From: Candidatus Woesebacteria bacterium
GTDB taxonomy: Bacteria; Patescibacteriota; Microgenomatia; UBA1400; PJMF01
NCBI GenBank assembly: GCA_050123235.1
Contig: JASFHL010000003.1
Span: 50,077 to 114,076, forward strand
Direction: 5' to 3'
DNA length: 64,000 nt
The notes under the pieces were generated by a model. The model did no database searches. It worked only from the letters and a program-made list of their open reading frames with translations, and was not told the origin of the DNA. This document shows positions 3,843 through 18,035 of this stretch, in pieces. Each line of letters starts with the position of its first letter. The stretch's first letter is position 1. Position numbers and translations under genes: made by a program.

Positions 3843-3852
3843 AATGTCTATC

Positions 3853-4110
3853 ACCTGTGAGTCAGGCTCACATTAAAACCATATTCGCCTGGAGAATATG
3901 GAGTGTATAGAAAACTGTTCCCCAGGGGAACAGTTTTTCCCATTCCGTAGATGGAAGGGTAGAAATTCAATAACTGTGAGCCTGGCTCATAGTTTTCCCT
4001 AAAAGTGTAAGCCTGGCTTACACTTTATTGGTTGAAGCGAGAGCTGTAAGCCAGGCTTATAGCTATTCGCCAGGCGAACAGCTCCTAAAGGGTCTATGCC
4101 AGGCAAGTAC
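3853..4110. repeat. array of at least seven palindromes/hairpins each centred on a CCWGG pentamer
   Basis: 3856-3872 tgtgag-tcagg-ctcaca; 3888-3908; 3911-3937 aaaactgttcccc-a-ggggaacagtttt (perfect); 3974-3992; 4002-4026 aaagtgtaagcc-t-ggcttacacttt (perfect); 4041-4084 compound (gagctgt..acagctc enclosing two CCAGG hairpins); mismatches are G.T on plus strand. Confidence 0.6.
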
Positions 4111-4114
4111 CCTT

Positions 4115-4894
4115 TTACTTTTCAATCTCTTTTACCGCCTCTCTATAAGCACAATAGTCACAATCCTCACCAGCATCAGGAATAGAATCACTATTTAAAC
4201 ATTTATGAGCACTCTTTATAGCTTGTTCAACCCAGCCATCAATTCCCTCATAAGCGATTAAAGTTATATTAAACTCAAGTTTGGCATCAAAAGCTTCTTT
4301 GTCTGTAATTCCATTACAATAGACAAAATAGCCTGTATCAGAAACTTTGTACTCATTTTGCCTTAGTAGCCACTGATACACCTCCATTTGACGCTTATAG
4401 CCTTCTTGCCAGTCCTTATCTAGCTCTGTTATCTCTTCACCCTTAGAAGTTGACTTGTAGTCAACAACAAGATATTCATCTTTAGAGTTGATCCATAAGT
4501 CATCAATGGCACCAAAGATTAATAAGTTAGTAGGCTTATGTAAATATTGAACCCCTACAAAATTTTGCCTCCAGTCGTCTAGCTTCTCATGGGCCACTGG
4601 CTTAGCATCTACCCCATACTTTTCTATCAATGGATGTTGTGTCCCATTAGCCCTATGAACATCAAATTCAAGCTTCAGAAGCTTATCTACGGCACTATTT
4701 AGAGCAAAAGGGAAACCAGGTGGTCTAGATACGCCTAAGCGTCTATCTAAATAAAAACATCTAGGACATTCTAAAAACAGGTCAATCTTAGATCGGCTCA
4801 ACTTAAAGGGTTGCTTAGAGCCTGGTTGGTAACAATATTTTGCTGATCGTTTAGCATTATAGTATTGAGACATAGTTATTTTTCTCCAGTCCAA
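4115..4894 (-). CDS. PD-(D/E)XK nuclease, Cas4/RecB-nuclease-like with 2+2 Cys (possible Fe-S)
   Basis: IDDLW...EYLVVDYKS (D..ExK), QMEVYQWL (QxxxY), N-terminal CPRC and C-terminal CDYC; 19-nt overlap with hsdR. Confidence 0.6.
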
Positions 4895-7800
4895 TCTTTA
4901 GCTAACAACTCTGCTTGCTCTAAGACAATTTTCGTTGCCCCCTCTTGTTTGTCGGGCGGGTACTTATACTTCTTCAACAGTCTTTTTATATAGACCCTAA
5001 GTTTAGCCTGGACACTTTCTTTAATAGTCCAGTCAATCGTGGTGTTCTTGCGAAGCATGTTTACCAACTCTTTGGCCATGGCTTTGAGTGTTTTATCTCC
5101 CAACTCCCTAACGGCACTTTCGTTATTTGCCAGAGCATCATAAAAAGCCACTTCTTCCTCAGATAACCCAAGGTCTTCTCCTTTGTCTCGCTCTTTTTTA
5201 ATCTTTTTAGCTAGCTCTAAAAGCTCTGCAATAACTTGGGCCGCTTCCAAGGTTCTGTTTTGATATTTTCGGATTGTTTCAGCCAGCATGTCAGCAAAGG
5301 AACGTGACATAACTAGATTCTTTTTAGTCATGGTTCTCAGCTCATCGTTCAAAAGCTTTTTCAACAGTTCCAAAGCCACATTCTTATGCTTCATATTTTT
5401 AACTTCAGCTAAAAACTCTTCTGAAAAAATGGAAATGTCTGGGGCTTTAATTCCAGCGGCAGAATAAATGTCAACTACATGGTCTGAAGCTACCGCAGAA
5501 GATACTATCTGCTTAATTGCCACATCATAGTCATCATCAGTTGGACCGCCACCTATAGGCTCCATCTTTACAATCCCACTCCTCACTATCTGGAAAAAGG
5601 AAACCTCATCTCTAATCTTTATTGCCTCTTCATGCGGAACCGCTAAAGAAAATGCCTTAGAGAGCTCAGAAACGGCTTTTAAGTATCGTTTCTTGCCATC
5701 TTTAAGCCCTAATATATAGTTTGTCGCTCCAGAGATAGTTTGAGTTCTTTCTGCTGGTGTACCTGTCAAATATTTCTTGTAGTCAAAGCCGTGATACATG
5801 CTCTTAACCACTTCGTATTTCTCAAGCATTAAAGAAACTGCTTTATCTTGAGGAATCGCTGTTTCTTGCCTGTCACTTTCAGAGTAATAAGATAGGGCTT
5901 CTTTTAATTGAGGAGCAATGCCAATGTAGTCAACGATTAAGCCACCCTGTTTGTCTTTATAAACCCTGTTCACCCGAGCAATGGCCTGCATCAAACCATG
6001 GCCTTGCATTGGCTTATCTATATACATGGTGTGAAGACAGGGAACATCAAAACCCGTTAACCACATATCTCTCACAATCACCAGCTTCATTTCATCATCT
6101 GGGTTTTTCATTCTCAAGGCCAACTCATCTAAAACGTGTTTTGGCCTGATATGGGGCTGAAAATTCAAGGGGTCAGAAGCAGAACCAGTCATCACTACTT
6201 TAACCACGCCTTTTTTATCATCATCGCTGTGCCAATTGGGTCTGAGTTTGACTATCTCGTTATAAAGGTCAACGGCAATTCTTCTACTCATGGCCACTAT
6301 CATGCCCTTGCCCTCAATAGCGCTTTGTCTATTTTCAAAATGTTCTACCAAGTCACGAGCCACCAGACTAATTCTTTTCTCTGAACCCACCATTGCTTCA
6401 AGCCTGGCCCACTTACTCTTGAGCTTTTCTTTGCGCTCTACTTCTTCACCCTCAGTTAACTCTTCGAACTCAGGGTCAATCTTAGGCTGTTCTTCTTTTT
6501 TCAACTCGATTCTTGCCAGCCTAGCCTCATAGTAGATAGGTACTGTGGCTTTATCCTCAACTGCTCGGGTTACATCATATACATCAACGTATTCACCAAA
6601 AACAGCTCGTGTATTTCTGTCTGTTAACTCAACTGGAGTACCAGTAAAGCCAATAAACGAAGCATTGGGAAGAGCATCTCGCATGTGGCGAGCAAAGCCT
6701 TTGATAAATTCATACTGGCTTCTATGTGCCTCATCAGCAATAACAACAATGTTTTTCCTGTCAGAAAGTTGTGGATACGACTTATGTCCGTTCTGAGGTA
6801 AAAACTTCTGTATGGTCGTAAATACCACACCACCAGAGGCTACTCTTAATAGTTCTTGTAGTTCATCTCTATCATTGGCTTGCTTAGGAGCCTGTCTGAG
6901 TAAATCGGAACATCTAGAAAAGGTTCCGAAAAGCTGATTATCTAAGTCATTCCTGTCAGTCAAAACAACCAAGGTCGGATTATTCAGAGCCTGAATTACC
7001 TTACCAGCATAAAAAGTCATGGTTAAACTCTTACCAGAGCCCTGAGTGTGCCAAACTACACCCGCTCTTCTATTTCCCTTTTCCTTGGTAGCATTAAAGG
7101 TGCTTTCAATGGCTTTATTGGTAGCAAAGTATTGATGATAAGCGGCGGCCTTCTTGACTGTCTTTTCACCATCAGTTTCAAAAACAATAAAGTTGTTGAT
7201 TAAATCCAAGAATCTAGTCTTATCAAAAATACCTTTAAGCAAAACCTCCAGTTGAGGGAACGCATTAGGGGCCAATTCTTCACCGTCAACTGTTCGCCAG
7301 CGAGTAAACCATTCAATACTAGCGCTTATTGTCCCAACTTTTGCTTCCAAACCATCACTAATAATTGAGAGCTCGTTATAAGTAAACAAAGAGGGAATAC
7401 CTTGCTTGTAGGTTTGAATCTGGTTAAAAGCACTCTTTACTGTAGCCTTCTCATCGCCTGGATTTTTCAACTCAATCACCACAACAGGCAAACCATTTAC
7501 AAAGACTACTACATCTGGGCGTCTGTTTACATTATTCTCAATAACCGTATACTGGTTAACTGCCAAAAAGTCATTTTTCTCAATATTTTTAAAGTCAACC
7601 AATTTCACCTTATCACCAGCCACCGAGCCATCCTCTCGCATATATTCAACATCTACACCATCCCTCATGTATGAGTGAAATATCTTGTTGTTAAGCACAA
7701 GACTAGGCGTAGCATTAGTAGCTTGCAAAACCTTTTTAACAGCTTCTTCTTTAGCATCTGCTGGAATGTTGGGATTAAATTGGTCGATAGCAGAACGAAG

Positions 7801-7956
7801 CCTACCTTCTAACACCACTTCAGAATAGTTCTTGCGCTCTGGTCGTTCACCATCTGGAGGCGGAGCAATTTCTGGACCACCAATAACAGTAAATCCTAGC
7901 TCCTCAAGCCATTCTAGTGTTGCTAATTCTAGGTCTGATTCTGTGTATTTAGTCAT
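4876..7956 (-). CDS. hsdR: type I restriction enzyme R subunit
   Basis: 1026 aa; helicase motif [12 protein letters not shown] and DEAH ([10 protein letters not shown]); N-terminal nuclease region. Confidence 0.9.
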
Positions 7957-7957
7957 A

Positions 7958-10399
7958 TTAATTTATATTTACCTTATCTGTTATTTTAATAAACGATTGA
8001 ATGTGCTTATCTAGTTCAGATATAGCAGATGGTATTTCCTTATCTGCATGTAGCAAATTTGAGTAATTGCAATATTTATATAAACTAGTTAACTTTTTTA
8101 AGTCGTCATCTGATAGTTTGCTCAGTTTGCTCCTGTTAGTTACCAAGTTATTAGTAACATCCTCAAATTTGTCTTCTTTGTTCCACATCAGCAAGTCATT
8201 CTTAATGAATCTTTCGATTGCGAGGCGTAATAACTGCCCATATTTAAGAGCCAGGGCTTCCATTTTAAGAGTTCCTTTGCTTACTTCATCTGATATTTCT
8301 TTATAACAACCCTTAACTTCACTTAATACATCAAATCCAGGGTCAACAAAGATAAATCCTCCTCCAAATTCTTCTCTGTTTTTTAAGACTCCAAACCTAT
8401 TTGAGTCTGGCGAAATACATTTAGATAGGTATTTATAAAATAGTGGATGGTGAGTAAAAATAAATACCTGACTAAAATCCTTAGTTTGAGAATGAATAAG
8501 CTCAGCTAAAATTTTCAAATTCGGAGCATCTAGACTCGTAATTGGGTCATCAAAAACAAGTATCTTTGCATCCTTTGATTCAAGCTTTTTGTTTAAAGCA
8601 AAAAAGAAAGCTATTGATATTATTTGTCTTTCTCCTTCAGACAACCCTTTTTTAAACTCTCTTTTATTATTACCTTTATCAATAACTTCAAAAGAAAATG
8701 GATATTCTTTAGTGTTTGGAGCTGGTTTAATATGTTTCAGTGAAAACGCCAGTTGAAAATTTTTTAGAATCGAATCCATCTCCTTGATAATAGAAGCTGG
8801 AATTTTTTTGGCTAAGTTGTTATCTAGTTCTTGCTCAAAGACTTTAATTTCTGATTGGAGAGCTTCCTTGTTCGAGTTAACCTTATCAAACTCTTTTATC
8901 TTGTCCGTTTTTTTATCAGAAATAAATGTTATCTTTTGAATAATGTCTGTGTTCTTTGATTCTAGTGATTGTATTTCTCCTGTTATTTTTTCTTCGCTTT
9001 TATATTTATCTTGGAAATTTTTTATTAAAGTATTTTTTAACTTTCTGAGTTCTTCGAGAGAATCAGCAAATAGTTTTAAGTCAGAAGTACCTTTAAGAGT
9101 GTTTAGAATATATCTCTTCTTTTTATCTTTATCTGCAATATCTATATTTTTTAACTCTTGAGCATACTTTTTAGCCTGCTCTGTTTGATCTGCAAAACTA
9201 TTTATCTGAGTGTCCTTTTTATGATATTTTTGTTTCTCTTCAAGAGAATATATGCCTTCAATCTTGAAGTCTTGATATAGTTTTTCTAAATTGGAAAAAA
9301 TTTCGTCTCTCCTTGTAAACAACTGAGCGATTGTGCTTTTTATTTTCTCTAGCTGTTCTACAAACAAGTCAATATCATCTATGTATTTTTTCTTTTGCTC
9401 CTCGTAAGATTTATCAAAAATCTGTTTGTAATAATTTATTACCTTAGTTGCGCCACTCAAGGACTGAGCACAAAGGGGACAGTCTTTTTCTTGAGGATTA
9501 AGTATCCTCTGATAGTTAGAATCTTTTTCTAGAAAACTTTTGTGTTTCTGAAAATGTGTTTCCAGAGCCTTATCAGTTTTAACTTCAGCTTTTTGTTTGA
9601 TGCTTCTATTAAATAACTCCTTAATTCCAGGTTCATCTAATAAATCTAGGTTATAACTTATCTCATCAATCTGTTTAATATTTTTAATGAAATCTATTTT
9701 CTTTAATAAACCTCGTATGGTTGCTAGCTTATTCTCAATTTCTTTTTGTTGTTTTTTTAGACTCTTTATTTCTTTTGCCAGTGAAGCTTGTTTTTTGTTT
9801 TTATAATTTTCGAATAATACTCTCTCTTCCTGAGTAAACGTGCTTTGTAATGCCAGCTTATTTGCTTCTAGAAATAACTTTAGTTCTTCCTTTTTTTCTG
9901 CTATCTGCTTTTTAAGTACATTAGCTTCGCTATCCAAATTGATAACCAAGTTGCCTGCATTTTGAGAATGTTGGCCTTTAAGGTTGCTTCTGGTTCCGTG
10001 TGTATGAATATTTTTGTTTACAAAGTCTATATCAAAAAATAGAATCGGGTTATTTTCCGTGGTTTGCTTATCCCAAGCTTGCTTTTGATAGGTAAAAACA
10101 GTTTGTTTTTTAGTTTTATTTATATGAACTTTCCCGTCTGGAGATTTATTTGACTTTGCCTCAATTTCTTCTGCTTCCAGAACAACCATCTCTGGATGTT
10201 TTTCTTCAATAGTTTCTACCCCAACCAAATCTTTTAATATTTCGCATACAGTTGTTTTTCCTGAACCATTTTCGCCAAAGAATAAGTTGAAGGGGCCAAA
10301 AACACATTCGTCAAGTTTTGCATTTTTACAGAAAGCATCCCATTTAAAATCTGTAAATGATTTATATTTAGTGATTTTATTTATCTTTTTTATCTTCAT
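7958..10399 (-). CDS. rloC: RloC-like anticodon-nuclease-family ATPase (PrrC homologue with Rad50-like coiled-coil/zinc hook)
   Basis: 813 aa; N-terminal Walker [10 protein letters not shown], long coiled-coil with central CPLC zinc-hook-like CxxC, distal [11 protein letters not shown] (Walker B/D-loop), C-terminal extra domain; embedded between hsdR and hsdS. Confidence 0.55.
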
Positions 10400-10400
10400 G

Positions 10401-11612
10401 TCAATTTACTCTCAACTTCCCACTCATTAGTCTTGGTAATAAAGAGCCACGTATTGATGATAATTTTTCGTTTTCCAAGGCATTTATTTTAATTTGCTGA
10501 AATATGGGTTCCATCGAATTGTGAAACTTTCGTATCAATGCTGTTTGAGGTGATTTTAATTTGTAGTTTCGAATAGCATCAATTTGAACTCGTTGTCTCC
10601 CAGAGCTTCCGACCATGCTTTTAATTGCATGTTGTCGAAATTGCTCATTCCTTACTAAGAAATAAACATATTCTCTATACTGATTGTCGTTAGGTCTGAA
10701 AACTATATATTCCGTGGAACCAAAAGCTAGCTCACCAGCTTCTAAGAAGCTTACCAGGGCACTTTTGCCATTCTCTAAGCAGGGGGTGATTCTGGCCATT
10801 AGTGAATCACCGTTCCTGAATTTTGAACCTCCTTTATAAGGTTTGCTAATCTGAGAGGAAACCCACATTCCTTGTTCTGGTAAATCTTTCATCTCAACAT
10901 ATTTGGTAGTTTCTCCTTTTTTTAAACTCTCTCTAGGATTCAATTCAATAAGACTTTCTAGTGCTATCGCGCCTTCCAAGGCTTCTGAATCCACAAACCA
11001 ATTCTTAAACAGAGCCTTACCCATTTCCTCCAGGGTCTGATTCGTCTTTCGATTTAATTCAATTTTTTCATCGAGAGAGCCCAAAACAGAAGCTATCTTT
11101 AATTGCTCATCATAAGACGGTAACAAAACCCTTACTTTTCTGAACTCCGACTGTCTTATGCCTTTTACAACTGAGCCAGTAGCTCTAGAAACAAGCTCTT
11201 GTTGTCCTATGTATGAAAGCAAGTAATATTTAAGAAAAGTATTGTCTAGTTCACCGTCTTTTCCCCGTAAAGTTAACAGCCTTTGGGCTAAACCTATATT
11301 TGCAGTATCAAGCTGAGCAACTTCACCTAAGGGAGCTTCTGTAGTTATTACAACGTCTCCTTTTTTTGGCAATCCTCTTGTCATCCAATTTTTCCAAGTT
11401 TCTTTGGTAATATACTCAGGATTGGAATAATCTATCCTTCCCGCCTTAACAACCTTTGCAGTCACAAGAGGTATCCCTGAATTTGTTTTTGGAGGTGTCT
11501 TGCCTCTGTAGTCAATAATTTTATCCAAGACATCAACGGATTTTACTATTCTCCAACTTTGGGGAATCTCACCAATTTCTGTTTGTTTGTAGTTAGTTTG
11601 TTGTTTAGTCAT
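10401..11612 (-). CDS. hsdS: type I restriction-modification specificity subunit
   Basis: 403 aa, two target-recognition domains separated by conserved central/terminal coiled repeats (LPSYDEQLKIASVLGSLDEKIELN ... LLPRLMSGKL). Confidence 0.85.
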   Translation of the reverse strand: MTKQQTNYKQTEIGEIPQSWRIVKSVDVLDKIIDYRGKTPPKTNSGIPLVTAKVVKAGRIDYSNPEYITKETWKNWMTRGLPKKGDVVITTEAPLGEVAQLDTANIGLAQRLLTLRGKDGELDNTFLKYYLLSYIGQQELVSRATGSVVKGIRQSEFRKVRVLLPSYDEQLKIASVLGSLDEKIELNRKTNQTLEEMGKALFKNWFVDSEALEGAIALESLIELNPRESLKKGETTKYVEMKDLPEQGMWVSSQISKPYKGGSKFRNGDSLMARITPCLENGKSALVSFLEAGELAFGSTEYIVFRPNDNQYREYVYFLVRNEQFRQHAIKSMVGSSGRQRVQIDAIRNYKLKSPQTALIRKFHNSMEPIFQQIKINALENEKLSSIRGSLLPRLMSGKLRVN

Positions 11613-12360
11613 TTCTGCTTATTAAGTCATAGGCTAGACTTGCCAATGATATGTAATGAATAGCCAAGTTCTTATCTAATTTTGTTGCTGGAGTATGTGA
11701 TTTTTCATTTCTTAAAAACTGTATAGCCATGTGTAAAAATTTAATCCCTTCGAAAAAATCCCTCTCTGCGTCATCTTTTGGCAAATGTCCAAATATTTTT
11801 TGGTAGTTACTTTTGTTAAAAGCATCTGTAGCTTTTTCTTTACCTGTAATATCTTTTAGTTTTTTTCTTACCACTTTGTAGGCTTCTTCAACCGCATTAA
11901 AATAATGACCATCGTTTAGTAAATTTTGAACATGATTAAAAATCTCATCTTGAAGCGTAATAGTGATATTCCCATTTTTGAAACTTGCTTTAAGCGCAGC
12001 CTCTTCTTTAATTGTTGTTTTACCAAGCAATCTTTGGGCAATCTTATTACCAGCATTTACTCTTGCCTTTGGAAAATCGTCTCTGTTGAGATTTTCTACT
12101 AAAATTTGAGTTTCAATATAAGAAATCAGTTTAAGAATGCTTTTGGCAACAGTGGTGTCATCGGCAGTGGACCAAAAACCCCGCATTCTATTAGCCTTTG
12201 AACCGCTAGCATAGTTATATTTCTGGCTATAAATTTTAATCTTCAGGTCATCTCTAAAAAACTCTCCCATTGTCCTGTCTGAGAAATTCAAAACATATCC
12301 ACTCTCCATCTGAAAAAGCTTTTCTAAGATTTGTTTTTCGTTTGTCGTTAAATTAGCCAT
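11605..12360 (-). CDS. HEPN-like (Rx4H motif RNEKSH) Abi_C/TIGR02391-like protein embedded in R-M operon
   Basis: C-terminal helical region with FLRNEKSHTP; 8-nt overlap with hsdS start and 2-nt gap to hsdM stop. Confidence 0.45.
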   Translation of the reverse strand: MANLTTNEKQILEKLFQMESGYVLNFSDRTMGEFFRDDLKIKIYSQKYNYASGSKANRMRGFWSTADDTTVAKSILKLISYIETQILVENLNRDDFPKARVNAGNKIAQRLLGKTTIKEEAALKASFKNGNITITLQDEIFNHVQNLLNDGHYFNAVEEAYKVVRKKLKDITGKEKATDAFNKSNYQKIFGHLPKDDAERDFFEGIKFLHMAIQFLRNEKSHTPATKLDKNLAIHYISLASLAYDLISRND

Positions 12361-12362
12361 AT

Positions 12363-13901
12363 TTATAAATCAAATCCTACTTTTGCTAAGTTCTCTTTAA
12401 TTTTCTTTTCTAACTCTTTAGACTCTTTGAATTGTTGACTTAACTCATTTGTGAGTCTTTTCATTTTCTCCTCAAACACCTCGTCATCTTCCATCTCAAA
12501 ATCTGTACCTACATAACGACCAGGAGTTAACACAAAACCATTCTTTTCTACTTCTTCAGTTTTGGCAGCCTTACAAAAACCCTTAACATCTTCATACTTG
12601 CCATTCTTATTTCTCCAGTTGTGATAAGTGTCAGCAATTCTTTGTAGCTCTTCTTCTGTCAACTCTCTATGCCTTCTATCTATCATCTTGCCTAATTGGC
12701 GAGCATCAATAAAAAGAATTTCATCGTGGCGGTCACGGAATTTGTGGTTATATCTATCTCTACTTACAAACCACAAAGAAGCGGGAATGCCTGTTGTGTA
12801 AAAGAGTTTATCTGGCAAGGCCACAATACAGTCAACCAAACCAGCCTTGATTAAACTTTTTCTAATCTTTCCCTCATTAGAAGTATTGGAAGATAAGGCC
12901 CCATTGGCCATGACAAACCCAGCTATACCTTCAGGGGACAAATGATGAATAAAATGCTGAATCCAAGCATAGTTGGCATTTCCTGTTGGAGGCGCACCAT
13001 ATTTCCAGCGCACATCGTCTCTTAGCCTCTCTCCACCCCAATCACTATCATTAAAAGGAGGATTAGCCAAAATAAAGTCTGCTTTTAGGTCCTTGTGTTG
13101 GTCATTATGGAAACTGTCTGCATCGGAAGTACCAAGGTTACCCTCAATTCCTCTAATAGCCAGATTCATCTTACAAAGGCGCCAGGTAGTAGGGTTGCTC
13201 TCTTGCCCATAAACTGAAATATCGCCAGTCTTTCCTCCATGCTCTTCTACAAACTTCTCACTCTGCACAAACATACCTCCAGAACCACAACAAGGATCAT
13301 AAACTCTGCCCTTGTAAGGCTCTATCATCTGAACCAGAAGTTTAACTACTGAGGCTGGAGTATAGAACTCACCACCACCCTTACCTTCTGCACTAGCGAA
13401 TCTCCCAATAAAATACTCATAAACTCTGCCCAATATGTCTTTAACCTTAGCTTCTTTATCTCCTAAACCTAGAGAGCTGAAAATATCGATAATCTCTCCT
13501 AAGCGCTGTTTGTTAAGGTCTGGTCTGGCAAATCTTTTTGGAAGTACGCCTTTGAGAGTAGGGTTGTCCTTCTCAATGGCTATCATGGCATCATCAACAA
13601 GCTTACCTATCTCTGGTTTCTTAGCATTTTGCTTTAAATAATCCCAACGAGCCTTTTCTGGTACCCAGAAAGCATTTCTAGCTTTGTAAGCATCTTTATC
13701 TTCCCATTCACCATCAAAAGCGTCTTTGTCAGCCTTAATTGCTTGGTAGATATCTTCAAAAGAGTCTGAAATGTATTTGAGAAATATCAAACCCAAAACT
13801 ACATGCTTATACTCGGCTGGGTCCATATTGTTACGCATTTTATCTGCGGCGGCCCACAACTTTTTTTCAAAGCCAAGATTGGCTGTGGTTCTTTTTGTCA
13901 T
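12363..13901 (-). CDS. hsdM: type I R-M DNA methyltransferase subunit (N6-adenine)
   Basis: NPPF motif (ILANPPFN), AdoMet motif, conserved HsdM N-terminus [16 protein letters not shown]; ORF-track start 13991 is a 30-aa over-extension that runs into the upstream HTH gene, so start set at 13901. Confidence 0.85.
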
Positions 13902-13929
13902 AATTTTCTTAATTCTCTTTTTATTATTT

Positions 13930-14109
13930 TCAACTATTTTCTTTAAGATATTTTTTAATATCTTCTTGGCGATAACGTCTATCACCAACACCCTTACGAC
14001 TTCCGATTCTGACTGCCTTTAATTTACCTTGATTATCCCAACGTCTTAGCGTTTCTGTGTTTACTTTTAATAATTCAGCTGCTTCTTTTATTGTTAGTAA
14101 TTTCTTCAT
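13930..14109 (-). CDS. excisionase/MerR-like HTH DNA-binding protein (59 aa, below ORF-track cutoff)
   Basis: [36 protein letters not shown]...; paralogous to 15793..16017; first gene of the R-M operon. Confidence 0.5.
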
Positions 14110-14202
14110 ATCAGTGATTCCTCATTGATTAGTGAATTCCATTTAATTATACATCCCTTCTTGTGTATTTGAAATGATAACAGTAAAATATAACTACAAA
14201 AT

Positions 14203-14308
14203 CAGAGCTGCGAAACTATAGCCTTTGGCGTGTCTTGAACCCAAAAAGGGGCGACTCTCGTAGGGTTCAAGGCTTCGCAGCTCTGAATACTGGGGGTCGT
14301 CCCTTTTT
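14203..14308 (+). ncRNA. candidate structured RNA/DNA element: nested stems plus pseudoknot-type pairing
   Basis: P1 14203-14214/14274-14285 (12 bp perfect), P2 14233-14242/14263-14272, loop 14243-14255 complementary to 14296-14308 (13 bp with one G.U, wobble only valid for plus-strand RNA). Confidence 0.3.
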
Positions 14309-14338
14309 ATTAATTTTGGATGGCCCAGAAAGGTAATC

Positions 14339-14674
14339 ATGGGCCTATTTTTTAAATCTGACGAAGAAAAGAAAAAAGAAGAGAAAGCAAAGCTTGAAGC
14401 AGTTCAAAAGCAAACTAATAAACTACTTCAAGGCTTAGGCTTAGACTTTGACAACTATTCTGAAGACAATTTAGAAGAAAAAAACAAAAACGATATTACA
14501 GCTATTGCTAAAACCACGGGTATAGGTGCAGCTGGAGAGCTTCTCTCTTCATTTAATATGTCCAACTATGAAAAAATCGCTACAACTCACCTAGGCACGC
14601 TTATAAAACAAAATTGGATCATCATCCGTCAACTCGAGTTAATCACTAGATTTCTTAATAAAACAGAAAAATAA
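14339..14674 (+). CDS. hypothetical protein
   Basis: ORF track; AAAGG SD upstream. Confidence 0.4.
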   Translation: MGLFFKSDEEKKKEEKAKLEAVQKQTNKLLQGLGLDFDNYSEDNLEEKNKNDITAIAKTTGIGAAGELLSSFNMSNYEKIATTHLGTLIKQNWIIIRQLELITRFLNKTEK

Positions 14675-14838: not shown

Positions 14839-15585
14839 ATGTTATATAACAAATCAAATAAAAGGCCTGTCGGTTGGTGCTTAATTCCACCCGAAGTTAT
14901 GGCAAGAAATGATTTATCTAATAGTGAAAAGCTTTTACTAGGTAGAATTAATGGTCTAAGGAATGAGAAAGGTTACTGCTATGCAACTAACAGATGGTTG
15001 GGAGAACAAATCGGATTACAAGAAGGAACTATTTCCAATATTATTAGTTCTTTAGTAAGAAAAGGTTTAATTGATAGAAAAATCATAAGAGATGAAAATA
15101 AGGAAGTTATCGAAAGGCAACTTTACCCTATTGAAATTACACAATGGATATCTGCTAAAACAAAGCTAACTCAATCTAGCCACGAAATAATTGATACCCC
15201 TGTCCATGAAAACGTTGAAGGTAGTATTAGAGATTTTAGTAATAGATATAATAATAATGGTAAGGCAAAGCCTTACACAAAAAGTGTTTTTGAACATATA
15301 GAAGAAAATCCTAGTATATACGAAGAAGTTAATACTGCTATCGACTACTACATTAATAACTACCAATGCCTTATAAGGAAAATGCACCCAAGAATTACTT
15401 TGGATCAATGGTCATCGGTTAAATATGGATTTGAGCTTATTGCTGGAGAATACACTCCAAGCATAGAAGAGTGGGAGAAAATGATAAACAAATGGTTTGA
15501 TATGAATATCCGTACAGATTACAACATCATCCATTTTAGTACGGGAGATTTTATTAAAAATAGGTATTTTGAAGAGTGTTACTAG
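14839..15585 (+). CDS. HTH_36-type winged-helix protein (plasmid/phage replication-initiator-like)
   Basis: N-terminal LSNSEKLLLGRINGL...GYCYATNRWLGEQIGLQEGTISNIISSLVRKGLIDR pattern; GGAGGG SD. Confidence 0.5.
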   Translation: MLYNKSNKRPVGWCLIPPEVMARNDLSNSEKLLLGRINGLRNEKGYCYATNRWLGEQIGLQEGTISNIISSLVRKGLIDRKIIRDENKEVIERQLYPIEITQWISAKTKLTQSSHEIIDTPVHENVEGSIRDFSNRYNNNGKAKPYTKSVFEHIEENPSIYEEVNTAIDYYINNYQCLIRKMHPRITLDQWSSVKYGFELIAGEYTPSIEEWEKMINKWFDMNIRTDYNIIHFSTGDFIKNRYFEECY

Positions 15586-16329: not shown

Positions 16330-16494
16330 ATGAAAAAAATAATAGGTTATTCTCGCATATCAAGTATAAAACAGTTATCTGACAATCAACTAGCTAAAAG
16401 TCAAAAAGAACTGGTTGCTGAATATGTGAATAAAAATAGATGCAAATTAATAGTGACGAATAACGATAGATTTTGCAGAAAGGGAATGAAATGA
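16330..16494 (+). pseudogene. serine-recombinase N-terminal fragment (54 aa) directly upstream of full-length recombinase
   Basis: MKKIIGYSRISSIKQ.. mirrors catalytic N-terminus (xxGYxRVSTxxQ); stop overlaps recombinase ATG (ATGA). Confidence 0.4.
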
Positions 16495-17996
16495 AAAAAG
16501 CAGTTGTCTATGCCCGAGTTTCAGACCCAGGACAAGTTGGAGGTTTGTCACTCGATGTTCAAAAGGAAAAGTGTGCAGAATGGGCAAAGAAAAATAAGTA
16601 TCAAGTAGTCGGGGTATATGAGGATGGTGGCAAAACAGGAACTAAAACAGTAGGTCGTGAAGGTTTAGAAGATATGATTATTCAATGTCAAGAAGAAAGC
16701 ATAAATGTGGCTTTGGTGATAGATACAGACAGAATTGCTAGAAACGAATTTGATCATTATAAAATCGTACACATTCTTAGGGAAAGTAACACTCAACTAG
16801 TAGCAATAAACCAACCAATGATAGATGATTCTGCAGAAGGTAAGCTCATGGAAGGCATGTTAGCCAGTATTAATGCCTTTTATAGTCGTCTAACAGGTCG
16901 CAAGGTTAAAAAAAGTCTAGAGAAGAAGCTCAAGGATGGTGATTGGCCTGGTTGGGCTCCTCTTGGTTATAAGAATGTTAATCTAGGCTCAGAAGACAAA
17001 CCCCATCGTGTTATTCAAGTTGATGAGGATAAGAGTTCCCTCATTAGTGAGTTATTTAAACTTTACTCTACGGGTAGCTATTCGGTTGACGAGCTAGTAG
17101 ATCATATAAACAAGAGGGGTCTAAGAAGCAAAACAGGCAAAAAAATGTATCGCAGTATTGTTTATGAGATGCTTAAAAACCCTTTCTATATCAGCTGGAT
17201 GAAATATAACGGTCAAACTTATAAAGGAAAACATAAAGCCTTAACCACACCAGAAATATTTGAAACCTGCCAGAAAATCATGGATCGGCACAACCATAAT
17301 GCCTGCAGAAGAAGAAAGTACAAGTGGCTTTTAAATGGTTTTGCTTATTGCCAAGAGTGTAATGCAAGACTTTATGGAGATAGGGTTAATGCGAAAAATA
17401 AGGCCTATTATCACGGCAACTCTAGAAGTGGTTGTAGTCACTACATTCCTTTAGATGAGCTTGAAGACGCTGTAGCAGACGAATTTAAGAAGATCGAGTT
17501 ATCAAAAGAGTTTATCCAAGCAGTTTTAGATAAAGCTAGAGAGCTTATCAAACAGTCTAGAGACTCCAGAACATCTGAGATAAACGGCGTGAGAAACGCT
17601 ATCAAAAAATTAGAAGATAAACGCAATATTCTTGAAGATAATCTCTTGGACCAAACCATTGATAAAGAGTCATTCAAGCGTAAACATCAAGACCTTAATT
17701 TTCAAATTCAAAACTTAGAGAATGATATAGCTACTATTGAAAACCAGAGAGGCTTTGATGTTGATGTGATAGAGGAGGTCTTAAAGCTCACCAACAACAT
17801 CTATGAGGTCTATTGTGATGCTGGCTTTGAAGCCAAGCGCCATTACTTAGCTATTTTCTTTGAGAGATTTGATATTAAAGACAAAAAGGTGGCAAAAGTT
17901 ACCTACACACCACTCTTTAAAAAGCTACTTGACTCGAGGAAAGTTAGAGTAAGTAGTAACTGGCTCCCCAGGTGGGACTCGAACCCACAACCTTGA
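16491..17996 (+). CDS. large serine recombinase (resolvase/invertase N-domain + recombinase domain + zinc ribbon + coiled coil)
   Basis: MKKAVVYARVSDPGQ catalytic motif, CQECNARLYGD zinc ribbon; likely start ATG 16491 (track start is TTG at 16473); 3' end overlaps tRNA-Asn. Confidence 0.85.
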   Translation: MKKAVVYARVSDPGQVGGLSLDVQKEKCAEWAKKNKYQVVGVYEDGGKTGTKTVGREGLEDMIIQCQEESINVALVIDTDRIARNEFDHYKIVHILRESNTQLVAINQPMIDDSAEGKLMEGMLASINAFYSRLTGRKVKKSLEKKLKDGDWPGWAPLGYKNVNLGSEDKPHRVIQVDEDKSSLISELFKLYSTGSYSVDELVDHINKRGLRSKTGKKMYRSIVYEMLKNPFYISWMKYNGQTYKGKHKALTTPEIFETCQKIMDRHNHNACRRRKYKWLLNGFAYCQECNARLYGDRVNAKNKAYYHGNSRSGCSHYIPLDELEDAVADEFKKIELSKEFIQAVLDKARELIKQSRDSRTSEINGVRNAIKKLEDKRNILEDNLLDQTIDKESFKRKHQDLNFQIQNLENDIATIENQRGFDVDVIEEVLKLTNNIYEVYCDAGFEAKRHYLAIFFERFDIKDKKVAKVTYTPLFKKLLDSRKVRVSSNWLPRWDSNPQP

Positions 17997-18035
17997 AGTT
18001 AACAGCTTCCTGCTCTGCCATTGAGCTACCGGGGA
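17961..18035 (-). tRNA. tRNA-Asn (anticodon GTT), CCA encoded
   Basis: hand-folded: acceptor TCCCCGG/CTGGGGA, D-arm GCTC-AATGGCA-GAGC, anticodon loop CTGTTAA, T-arm GTGGG-TTCGAGT-CCCAC, discriminator G; one G.A at top of anticodon stem. Confidence 0.65.

Follow-up and report, generated by a model that had tools for sequence, protein, structure and literature searches.

We analysed a 64,000-nucleotide (nt) stretch of a Candidatus Woesebacteria genome (assembly GCA_050123235.1, contig JASFHL010000003.1, positions 50,077 to 114,076), hereafter the window, in which seven consecutive minus-strand open reading frames (ORFs), from position 14109 to 4115, encode a type I restriction-modification (R-M) system together with three accessory genes. 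In minus-strand order, they are an HTH_17 gene, hsdM, a Ymh/TIGR02391 HEPN gene, hsdS, the gene of an RloC-like protein of 813 amino acids (aa), hsdR, and a RecB-type PD-(D/E)XK nuclease gene (Table 1). All seven were recovered where a first-pass annotation, made from the sequence alone, had placed them, with the motifs that it quoted present in the translations, and each has a significant family match in Pfam, NCBIfam and PADLOC searches. These matches are beyond chance. Thus, the proposed gene content and order, the HTH first gene and the compact operon all stand.

The R-M core is predicted to be a complete type I enzyme, with HsdM, an HsdS with two target-recognition domains and an HsdR with its catalytic motifs. 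HsdM scored 773 bits with the PADLOC model MTase_I and contains the DPCCGSGG and NPPF motifs; it stayed under the cut-off of the equivalog TIGR00497 (197 vs. 243 bits). HsdS scored 329 bits with Specificity_I. HsdR matched HSDR_N, SWI2_SNF2, T1R_D3-like and T1RH-like_C in Pfam and scored 1167 bits with REase_I of PADLOC. The nearest solved structure for HsdR is that of EcoR124I, a type IC enzyme (2e-42), and we call the system type IC-like on the basis of this nearest solved relative only. Compared with a related island of Chisholmbacteria (L001 among the related loci that we sampled), the HTH protein, HsdM and HsdR are 64, 79 and 74% identical, the RloC-like protein 47%, and HsdS 32%, the latter against 74–79% for HsdM and HsdR. 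The HTH protein exceeded the TIGR01764 cut-off (41 vs. 28.8 bits) and matched mad1 of PADLOC (1.3e-14). The hsdM genes of L001, L004, L048, and L098 likewise have an HTH_17 gene before them; in the window, the product of this first gene is likely to be the operon regulator.

Within the operon, gaps do not exceed 28 nt. Two gene overlaps had been reported: the one of 8 nt, between the Ymh gene and hsdS, is real, whereas the one of 19 nt, between hsdR and the nuclease gene, is the product of an upstream TTG start. We place the start of the nuclease at ATG 4873 because the L004 orthologue aligns from that codon, and this leaves a 2-nt gap (TAA CT ATG). The long hsdM ORF from GTG 13991 runs into the HTH gene, and the start of hsdM is probably ATG 13901 (MTKRTTANL...), 28 nt after the HTH stop. 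The remaining junctions are one 2-nt gap and two 1-nt gaps. Upstream of the HTH gene, we infer a promoter role for the site at 14173–14146, whose −10 region (ATGTATAATTAAA) is kept in L001. Since the junctions are tight and one strong promoter-like site stands before the HTH gene, a single transcript of ~10 kb for the seven genes is likely.

Table 1 Features of the operon and its surroundings, in window coordinates
Feature	Position	Strand	Basis or remark
HTH_17 (MerR/excisionase-type), 59 aa, first gene	13930..14109	-	Pfam HTH_17 4.4e-14
hsdM, type I methyltransferase subunit	12363..13901	-	N6_Mtase 5e-113, 378 bits; HsdM_N 100 bits
Ymh/TIGR02391 protein, 251 aa; helical N-terminal domain of no known family and C-terminal HEPN	11605..12360	-	
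R217-NEKS-H222 of the Ymh protein	11695-11712	-	invariant R-x4-H
hsdS, specificity subunit, two target-recognition domains	10401..11612	-	Methylase_S in two stretches
RloC-like protein, 813 aa; split ABC ATPase head, long insert	7958..10399	-	AAA_13 91 bits vs. cut-off 36
Walker A of the RloC-like protein	10253-10276	-	
CPLC zinc hook of the RloC-like protein	9470-9481	-	
C-terminal HEPN-fold domain of the RloC-like protein, aa 662-813, R725/E729/H784	7961..8416	-	fold prediction
hsdR, restriction/translocase subunit	4876..7956	-	TIGR00348 652 bits vs. cut-off 285
RecB-family PD-(D/E)XK nuclease, 252 aa, two CxxC pairs	4115..4873	-	PDDEXK_1 57.7 bits vs. cut-off 22
Promoter-like site of the operon, TTCAAA-16-TATAAT	14146..14173	-	10/12, top minus-strand match in region
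Structured non-coding element, 111 nt	14200..14310		between HTH gene and divergent ORF 14339-14674
About eight near-perfect palindromes of 22-27 nt centred on CCWGG	3845..4115		directly 3' of operon

The RloC-like protein

We regard the 813-aa protein as RloC-like by its architecture, motifs and predicted fold. RloC is defined by ABC motifs, a coiled-coil/zinc-hook insert and a C-terminal R-X3-E-X36-52-H motif, often with a Ser before the His (PMC2610378). The first-pass annotation had proposed an RloC/Rad50-like layout, and this was borne out by the AAA_13 match above its cut-off, the invariant ATPase motifs and the CPxC hook. SMC_N stayed below its cut-off. PADLOC also returned PDC-S06 (1.8e-28).

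Conservation was assessed in an alignment of 17 relatives, with identities down to 24%. The ATPase residues G42, N44, G47, K48, Q146, LSEGE 586–590, D617, D618, and D624 are invariant, and T649, H650, and H651 are near-invariant. The hook C307-P308-x-C310 is invariant too and lies in the middle of an insert of ~400 aa between Walker A (42) and the signature (586), in a context similar to that of published RloCs. In the last 150 residues, R725, E729, K733, H784, K787, and E795 are kept, and R725-x3-E729-x54-H784 is invariant. Structure prediction of this C-terminal domain, which had been suggested as a check, gave a HEPN fold, and the domain carries R725, E729, and H784.

Much is thus shared with the RloCs of Geobacillus kaustophilus and Acinetobacter baylyi and with those of the Campylobacter jejuni type I hsd loci: the size (813 aa vs. 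658–897 published), the ABC head split by an insert, the central CxxC hook, the C-terminal R-x3-E...H with HEPN fold, an occurrence sometimes in type I loci and sometimes solo, and the Pfam AAA_13 and COG labels. An identical protein, recorded from a Candidatus Woesebacteria metagenome-assembled genome (MAG), carries the IMG/JGI label "wobble nucleotide-excising tRNase", the COG name of RloC. There are also differences: the His of the window protein stands in NYSNLLHxDKE rather than in N-E-x-S-H, and linkage to R-M genes is commoner in its clade (around one third of the sampled loci).

On its sequence, the C-terminal domain represents a small and divergent RloC-like subfamily. Full-length-looking matches to its profile measured 735–843 aa, and cluster look-ups of the distant matches gave almost no names. 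Eleven more typical RloC-like C-terminal domains show N..R[RK]x[LI]E...N[ED]xSH, and the sole stretch that hhalign aligned between them and the window domain puts R-x3-E on R-x3-E. For the 813-aa protein, searches of PADLOC, NCBIfam and PHROGs gave no match to PrrC or RloC, a PDB sequence search matched the ABC ATPase lobe only, and none of the loci found in the genome and metagenome scans came from an organism whose RloC has been characterised.

The Ymh protein, the nuclease and the related loci

The existence of a second HEPN-like protein, also proposed beforehand, was confirmed by profile search: the Ymh protein scored 98.3 bits with TIGR02391 (cut-off 39.45) and 58.4 bits with PF09509, Hypoth_Ymh (cut-off 25; 8e-16), and its R-x4-H motif is invariant. 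A HEPN fold was computed for its C-terminal half, and the N-terminal ~115 residues matched no Pfam family. An identical 251-aa protein, likewise recorded from a Candidatus Woesebacteria MAG, is labelled "TIGR02391 family protein" in IMG. The Ymh proteins described by Anantharaman et al. 2013 share the family match above cut-off, the R-x4-H and the R-M operon context; what differs here is the 250-aa architecture, with an N-terminal domain absent from Pfam, and the recurrent position between hsdM and hsdS.

Searches for relatives of the Ymh protein gave 1648 matches, with more than 120 clusters at 72–83% identity, mostly from Patescibacteria. R-M genes adjoin the Ymh gene in all seven close relatives that were sampled: three have the order hsdM-Ymh-hsdS (L046, L048, and L098), three place the gene beside an EcoRI-type methylase and a GmrSD/HNH gene (L045, L096, and L097), and one beside a helicase-type restriction gene and a methylase-specificity fusion (L095). 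In the literature searched, no member of this 250-aa family has a tested function. Its conservation is unusual for a defence-associated gene, and it extends over Patescibacteria, Elusimicrobiota and a Brocadiia relative.

The last gene had been annotated as a Cas4-like nuclease. The four-Cys PD-(D/E)XK part of that claim stood and the Cas4 part did not. In four homologues, C36-P-x-C39, D124-D125, D138-Y-K140, Q162...Y166, and C238-x-x-C241 are invariant, with CPRC...CDYC as the cysteine pairs of the window protein. The D, DxK and QxxxY motifs and the four conserved cysteines are shared with Cas4/RecB nucleases. The Fe-S cysteine pattern of Cas4 is C...CxxCx5C. We rejected a Cas4 identity on the TIGR00372 score (32.1 vs. 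a cut-off of 65), the CPxC...CxxC pattern, and the lack of cas genes in the operon and its flanks. Unlike Cas4, the window nuclease is associated with R-M islands, though not exclusively. The two best-resolved R-M-linked relatives both have an orthologue: in L004 it is oriented divergently to the HTH gene (52% identity), and in L001 it follows the GmrSD gene (32% identity); tblastn of the nuclease against phage records gave no match.

Related loci recombine the same parts in other ways. L001 lacks a Ymh gene and has an additional GmrSD gene; L004, on an integrase island, has the order HTH-hsdM-RhuM-DUF2130-RloC-hsdS-hsdR. Among ~24 distinct loci with RloC-like relatives, hsd genes are within reach in eight and a Ymh gene in none, and several relatives, including those of L006 and L007 (no R-M), stand solo among housekeeping genes. 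Between hsdS and hsdR, L046 and L098 have other genes, and L048 has none. The design is thus modular, with Ymh in the M-S slot, RloC or others in the S-R slot, and nuclease relatives nearby in variable positions. The pairing of Ymh and RloC was seen only in the window among the sampled loci, and the window operon is one assortment of recurring cassettes, because the related loci combine these parts differently.

Two of these junctions contain genes of their own interest. In L046, an uncharacterised 224-aa protein is encoded at 9985–10659, and in L098 an AAA_33-like 154-aa protein and a 301-aa protein, also uncharacterised, at 11005–12395. They are candidates for further R-M-embedded accessory genes.

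Mode of action and rival explanations

Taken as a whole, our preferred reading, to which we give a probability of about 0.6, is that the R-M core is accompanied by a latent RloC-like RNase with an internal switch, a Ymh RNase and a DNA nuclease. The R-M enzyme would be the first defence layer and would cut unmodified invading DNA. The RloC-like protein would be a latent RNase, most likely an anticodon nuclease, and its zinc-hook-bridged ATPase, on binding DNA ends and hydrolysing ATP, would turn on its own HEPN domain; translation would then stop in cells with overwhelmed restriction or DNA breakage. Linkage in cis would provide co-expression and co-transfer, and possibly local DNA ends from HsdR. 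Ymh would be a second, independently regulated HEPN RNase, and the PD-(D/E)XK protein would be a nuclease for DNA, with restriction fragments as a plausible substrate. This mechanism is weakest in its tRNA target and its trigger.

An internal switch is preferred to silencing of the PrrC type because RloC-like relatives occur without R-M. In published RloC, the switch is driven by DNA ends and ATP (PMC3458546, PMC3874168); it has been seen in the Geobacillus and Acinetobacter proteins, and published RloC is activated by double-strand breaks (DSBs) even in an R-M-deficient host. The relatives that stand alone among housekeeping genes in L006 and L007 suggest that the window protein regulates itself as well, and the published switch supports this. 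The first-pass annotation had taken it as established that both PrrC and RloC are held silent by their cognate R-M enzyme. That is so for PrrC only, since RloC has its internal switch and the L006 and L007 relatives have no R-M.

Several observations weigh against our preferred reading. The R-x3-E-x54-H spacing is two residues beyond the published X36-52, and Leu, not Ser, precedes the His. The profile of the C-terminal domain found only 81 clusters in an exhaustive search of 1.84 billion representatives, and hhalign did not align it significantly with the C-terminal domains of the 11 more typical RloC-like proteins (probability 0.13%). BLASTP of the 813-aa protein against the coiled-coil region of Geobacillus RloC (residues 121–540, text derived by optical character recognition) gave no significant match. 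The RNA target assigned to the RloC-like protein is a guess, and co-transcription of the operon is deduced from spacing alone. Moreover, a nuclease homologue of 47% identity lies on a Flagellatimonas plasmid with no adjoining R-M system. Finally, the close Ymh relatives (72–83% identical) adjoin R-M loci of no fewer than three unrelated kinds, which disfavours a specific contact of the Ymh protein with this R-M enzyme.

This last point leads to the alternative that we take most seriously, although we consider it on balance unlikely: the accessory genes would be independent defence or addiction cassettes in permissive R-M junctions, sharing transcription and mobility without functional coupling. 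The Ymh relatives at three different kinds of R-M locus, the unrelated genes in the S-R slot of L046 and L098, the RloC-like relatives that are solo in L006, L007 and most of the sampled loci, and the published internal switch of RloC all favour it. So does base composition, as the GC content is 0.31 for the RloC-like gene and 0.33 for the Ymh gene (0.31–0.33 for the two HEPN genes and the HTH gene) vs. 0.40–0.41 for hsdM and hsdR (0.38–0.41 when hsdS and the nuclease gene are included). The low values are consistent with cassettes of a different origin, or with a Lys/Glu-rich coiled-coil composition. Yet the presence of R-M genes beside Ymh in seven of seven sampled relatives would be difficult to account for if no functional link existed, hsd genes are within reach of eight of ~24 RloC relatives vs. 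8 of 72 in a 2008 census, the near-zero intergenic gaps suggest translational coupling, and PrrC offers a precedent for coupling. That precedent is itself the basis of another model, the one originally proposed for this locus, in which the RloC-like protein, and perhaps Ymh, would be guards silenced by the R-M complex and freed by a phage anti-restriction protein. Release through inhibition of the R-M enzyme could occur, though an internal switch is more likely, and we regard the guard model in full as rather unlikely. It draws support from a gene embedded in an hsd operon as prrC is, from the type IC HsdR as nearest solved relative, this being the PrrC-linked family, and from the fast, guard-like evolution of the RloC-like protein (47% identity to L001 vs. 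74–79% for HsdM and HsdR). Nevertheless, a family found without R-M in several genomes must silence itself, the hook and the features of a DNA-dependent ATPase that define the internal switch are invariant, and published RloC responds to DSBs in an R-M-deficient host. The E. coli prr locus (the type IC EcoprrI plus PrrC) does share with the window an ABC-ATPase-HEPN gene inside a type IC-like hsd operon and the two layers of DNA restriction and RNase. In that locus prrC lies between hsdS and hsdR, and a review describes it only as embedded in the prrABD operon. PrrC, however, measures 341–416 aa, has an uninterrupted ATPase domain without coiled coil or zinc hook, and occurs only in linkage with an R-M system, whose enzyme silences it, whereas the window protein has 813 aa, an insert of ~400 aa, and relatives that also occur without R-M. 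The second HEPN gene, the PD-(D/E)XK gene and the HTH first gene of the window operon are all missing from prr.

A different possibility is that the protein and its relatives form a separate ABC-ATPase/zinc-hook-HEPN lineage, enriched in the Candidate Phyla Radiation (CPR), in which a DNA-end sensor is wired to type I restriction. Breaks made by HsdR would trigger the RNase, whose target would not necessarily be tRNA, and Ymh, the nuclease and the 111-nt element (e.g., as a regulatory or antitoxin RNA) would form one regulated unit. We hold this to be improbable. It is very improbable that the 813-aa protein has no RNase role and is instead a DNA-handling ATPase of the SMC/Rad50/SbcC kind, for example one that aids translocation or mends DNA once restriction has acted. 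SMC_N, AAA_23, archaeal SMC-related, Rad50 and SbcC-like PHROG models did give partial matches, and one relative has the IMG label "SbcCD ATPase subunit", but those matches were all under their curated cut-offs while AAA_13 was above, no Mre11/SbcD partner gene is present, and the C-terminal HEPN-fold domain, which here carries invariant R, E and H, is missing from Rad50 and SbcC. The PADLOC matches mad1 for the HTH protein (1.3e-14), mad2 for HsdM (2e-55) and mad3 for part of the ATPase (9e-18) could also have indicated a variant of the methylation-associated defence system (MADS). This identity was ruled out by score cut-offs: NCBIfam MADS1, MADS2, and MADS5 gave 23.6, 48, and 28 bits vs. 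80, 720, and 400, the type I models scored far higher (MTase_I 773 and REase_I 1167 bits), and no other mad model matched significantly, with mad8 marginal only (E 0.006).

As to novelty, the first-pass annotation had presented the multi-effector arrangement as richer than the classical prr locus, and this was overstated. Earlier work has already described type I loci that contain RloC, R-M operons that contain Ymh, and multi-effector operons joining HEPN and R-M (PMC2610378, PMC3710099). What is new here is the combination of three accessory genes, an RloC-like subfamily that is small and divergent, and the occurrence in a CPR host; the parts themselves are known, and the window operon does not overturn current ideas. 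It illustrates how effectors gather at fixed gene junctions of type I R-M operons, and it would place an RNase layer of the abortive-infection type in a CPR bacterium, a member of a group with tiny genomes in which few defence systems have been recognised. A recent survey nonetheless reported that the density of defence systems per Mb is high in CPR (PMC12259885). Both the RloC-like subfamily and the conserved 250-aa Ymh family would lend themselves to asking whether R-M-embedded RNases sense restriction, DNA ends or something else.

Island setting and neighbouring elements

The operon lies on an integrative island of this CPR genome. We conclude this because it is flanked by a replication-initiator-like gene (14839–15585) and, beyond it, by the gene of a large serine recombinase (16473–17996) whose 3′ end overlaps a tRNA-Asn gene (17961–18035, minus strand), because an array of palindromes is present, and because the GC of the hsd genes is above that of the flanks. 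A 14-nt repeat of the tRNA-Asn 3′ end (GCTCCCCAGGTGGG) occurs at 381–394, with ~0.06 matches expected by chance, and may mark the far end of an island of ~17.6 kb. Large serine recombinases are near the R-M operons of L001 and L098 too. Besides, a gene with a DUF8426/NucS_C domain was observed on the R-M islands of L004 (16891–17814) and L098 (490–1419), beside transposase or recombinase genes.

Upstream of the operon, the 111-nt element is 94.6% identical to the same position of the Chisholmbacteria island L001 (~6800–6915), while around it nucleotide identity is 62% for the promoter and 5′ untranslated region, 69% for the HTH gene and 74% for hsdM. It is predicted to fold into a long two-tier hairpin and a GC hairpin with a U-run (minimum free energy −52 kcal/mol, z = −6.1). 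The element belongs to no Rfam family and is absent from L004, L048, and L098; viral contigs contained no exact copy of it, and blastn searches of plasmids and phages gave no match. Two conceivable identities are a small RNA gene and a DNA site of the island.

At the other end of the operon, the CCWGG-centred palindromes follow each other at 30–60 nt. Their stems vary between copies yet stay palindromic, the array has an RNA fold z score of −8.0, and a terminator-like match lies within it at 3901–3879 on the minus strand. No such palindromes were found elsewhere in the window or in the seven related loci checked. A terminator array or an island end are both possible. As for the CCWGG site by itself, the bin 34000–36000 of the window holds 13 sites, against 0–7 in every other 2-kb bin, and it overlaps the ORFs 34335–36485 (plus strand) and 35415–36491 (minus strand).

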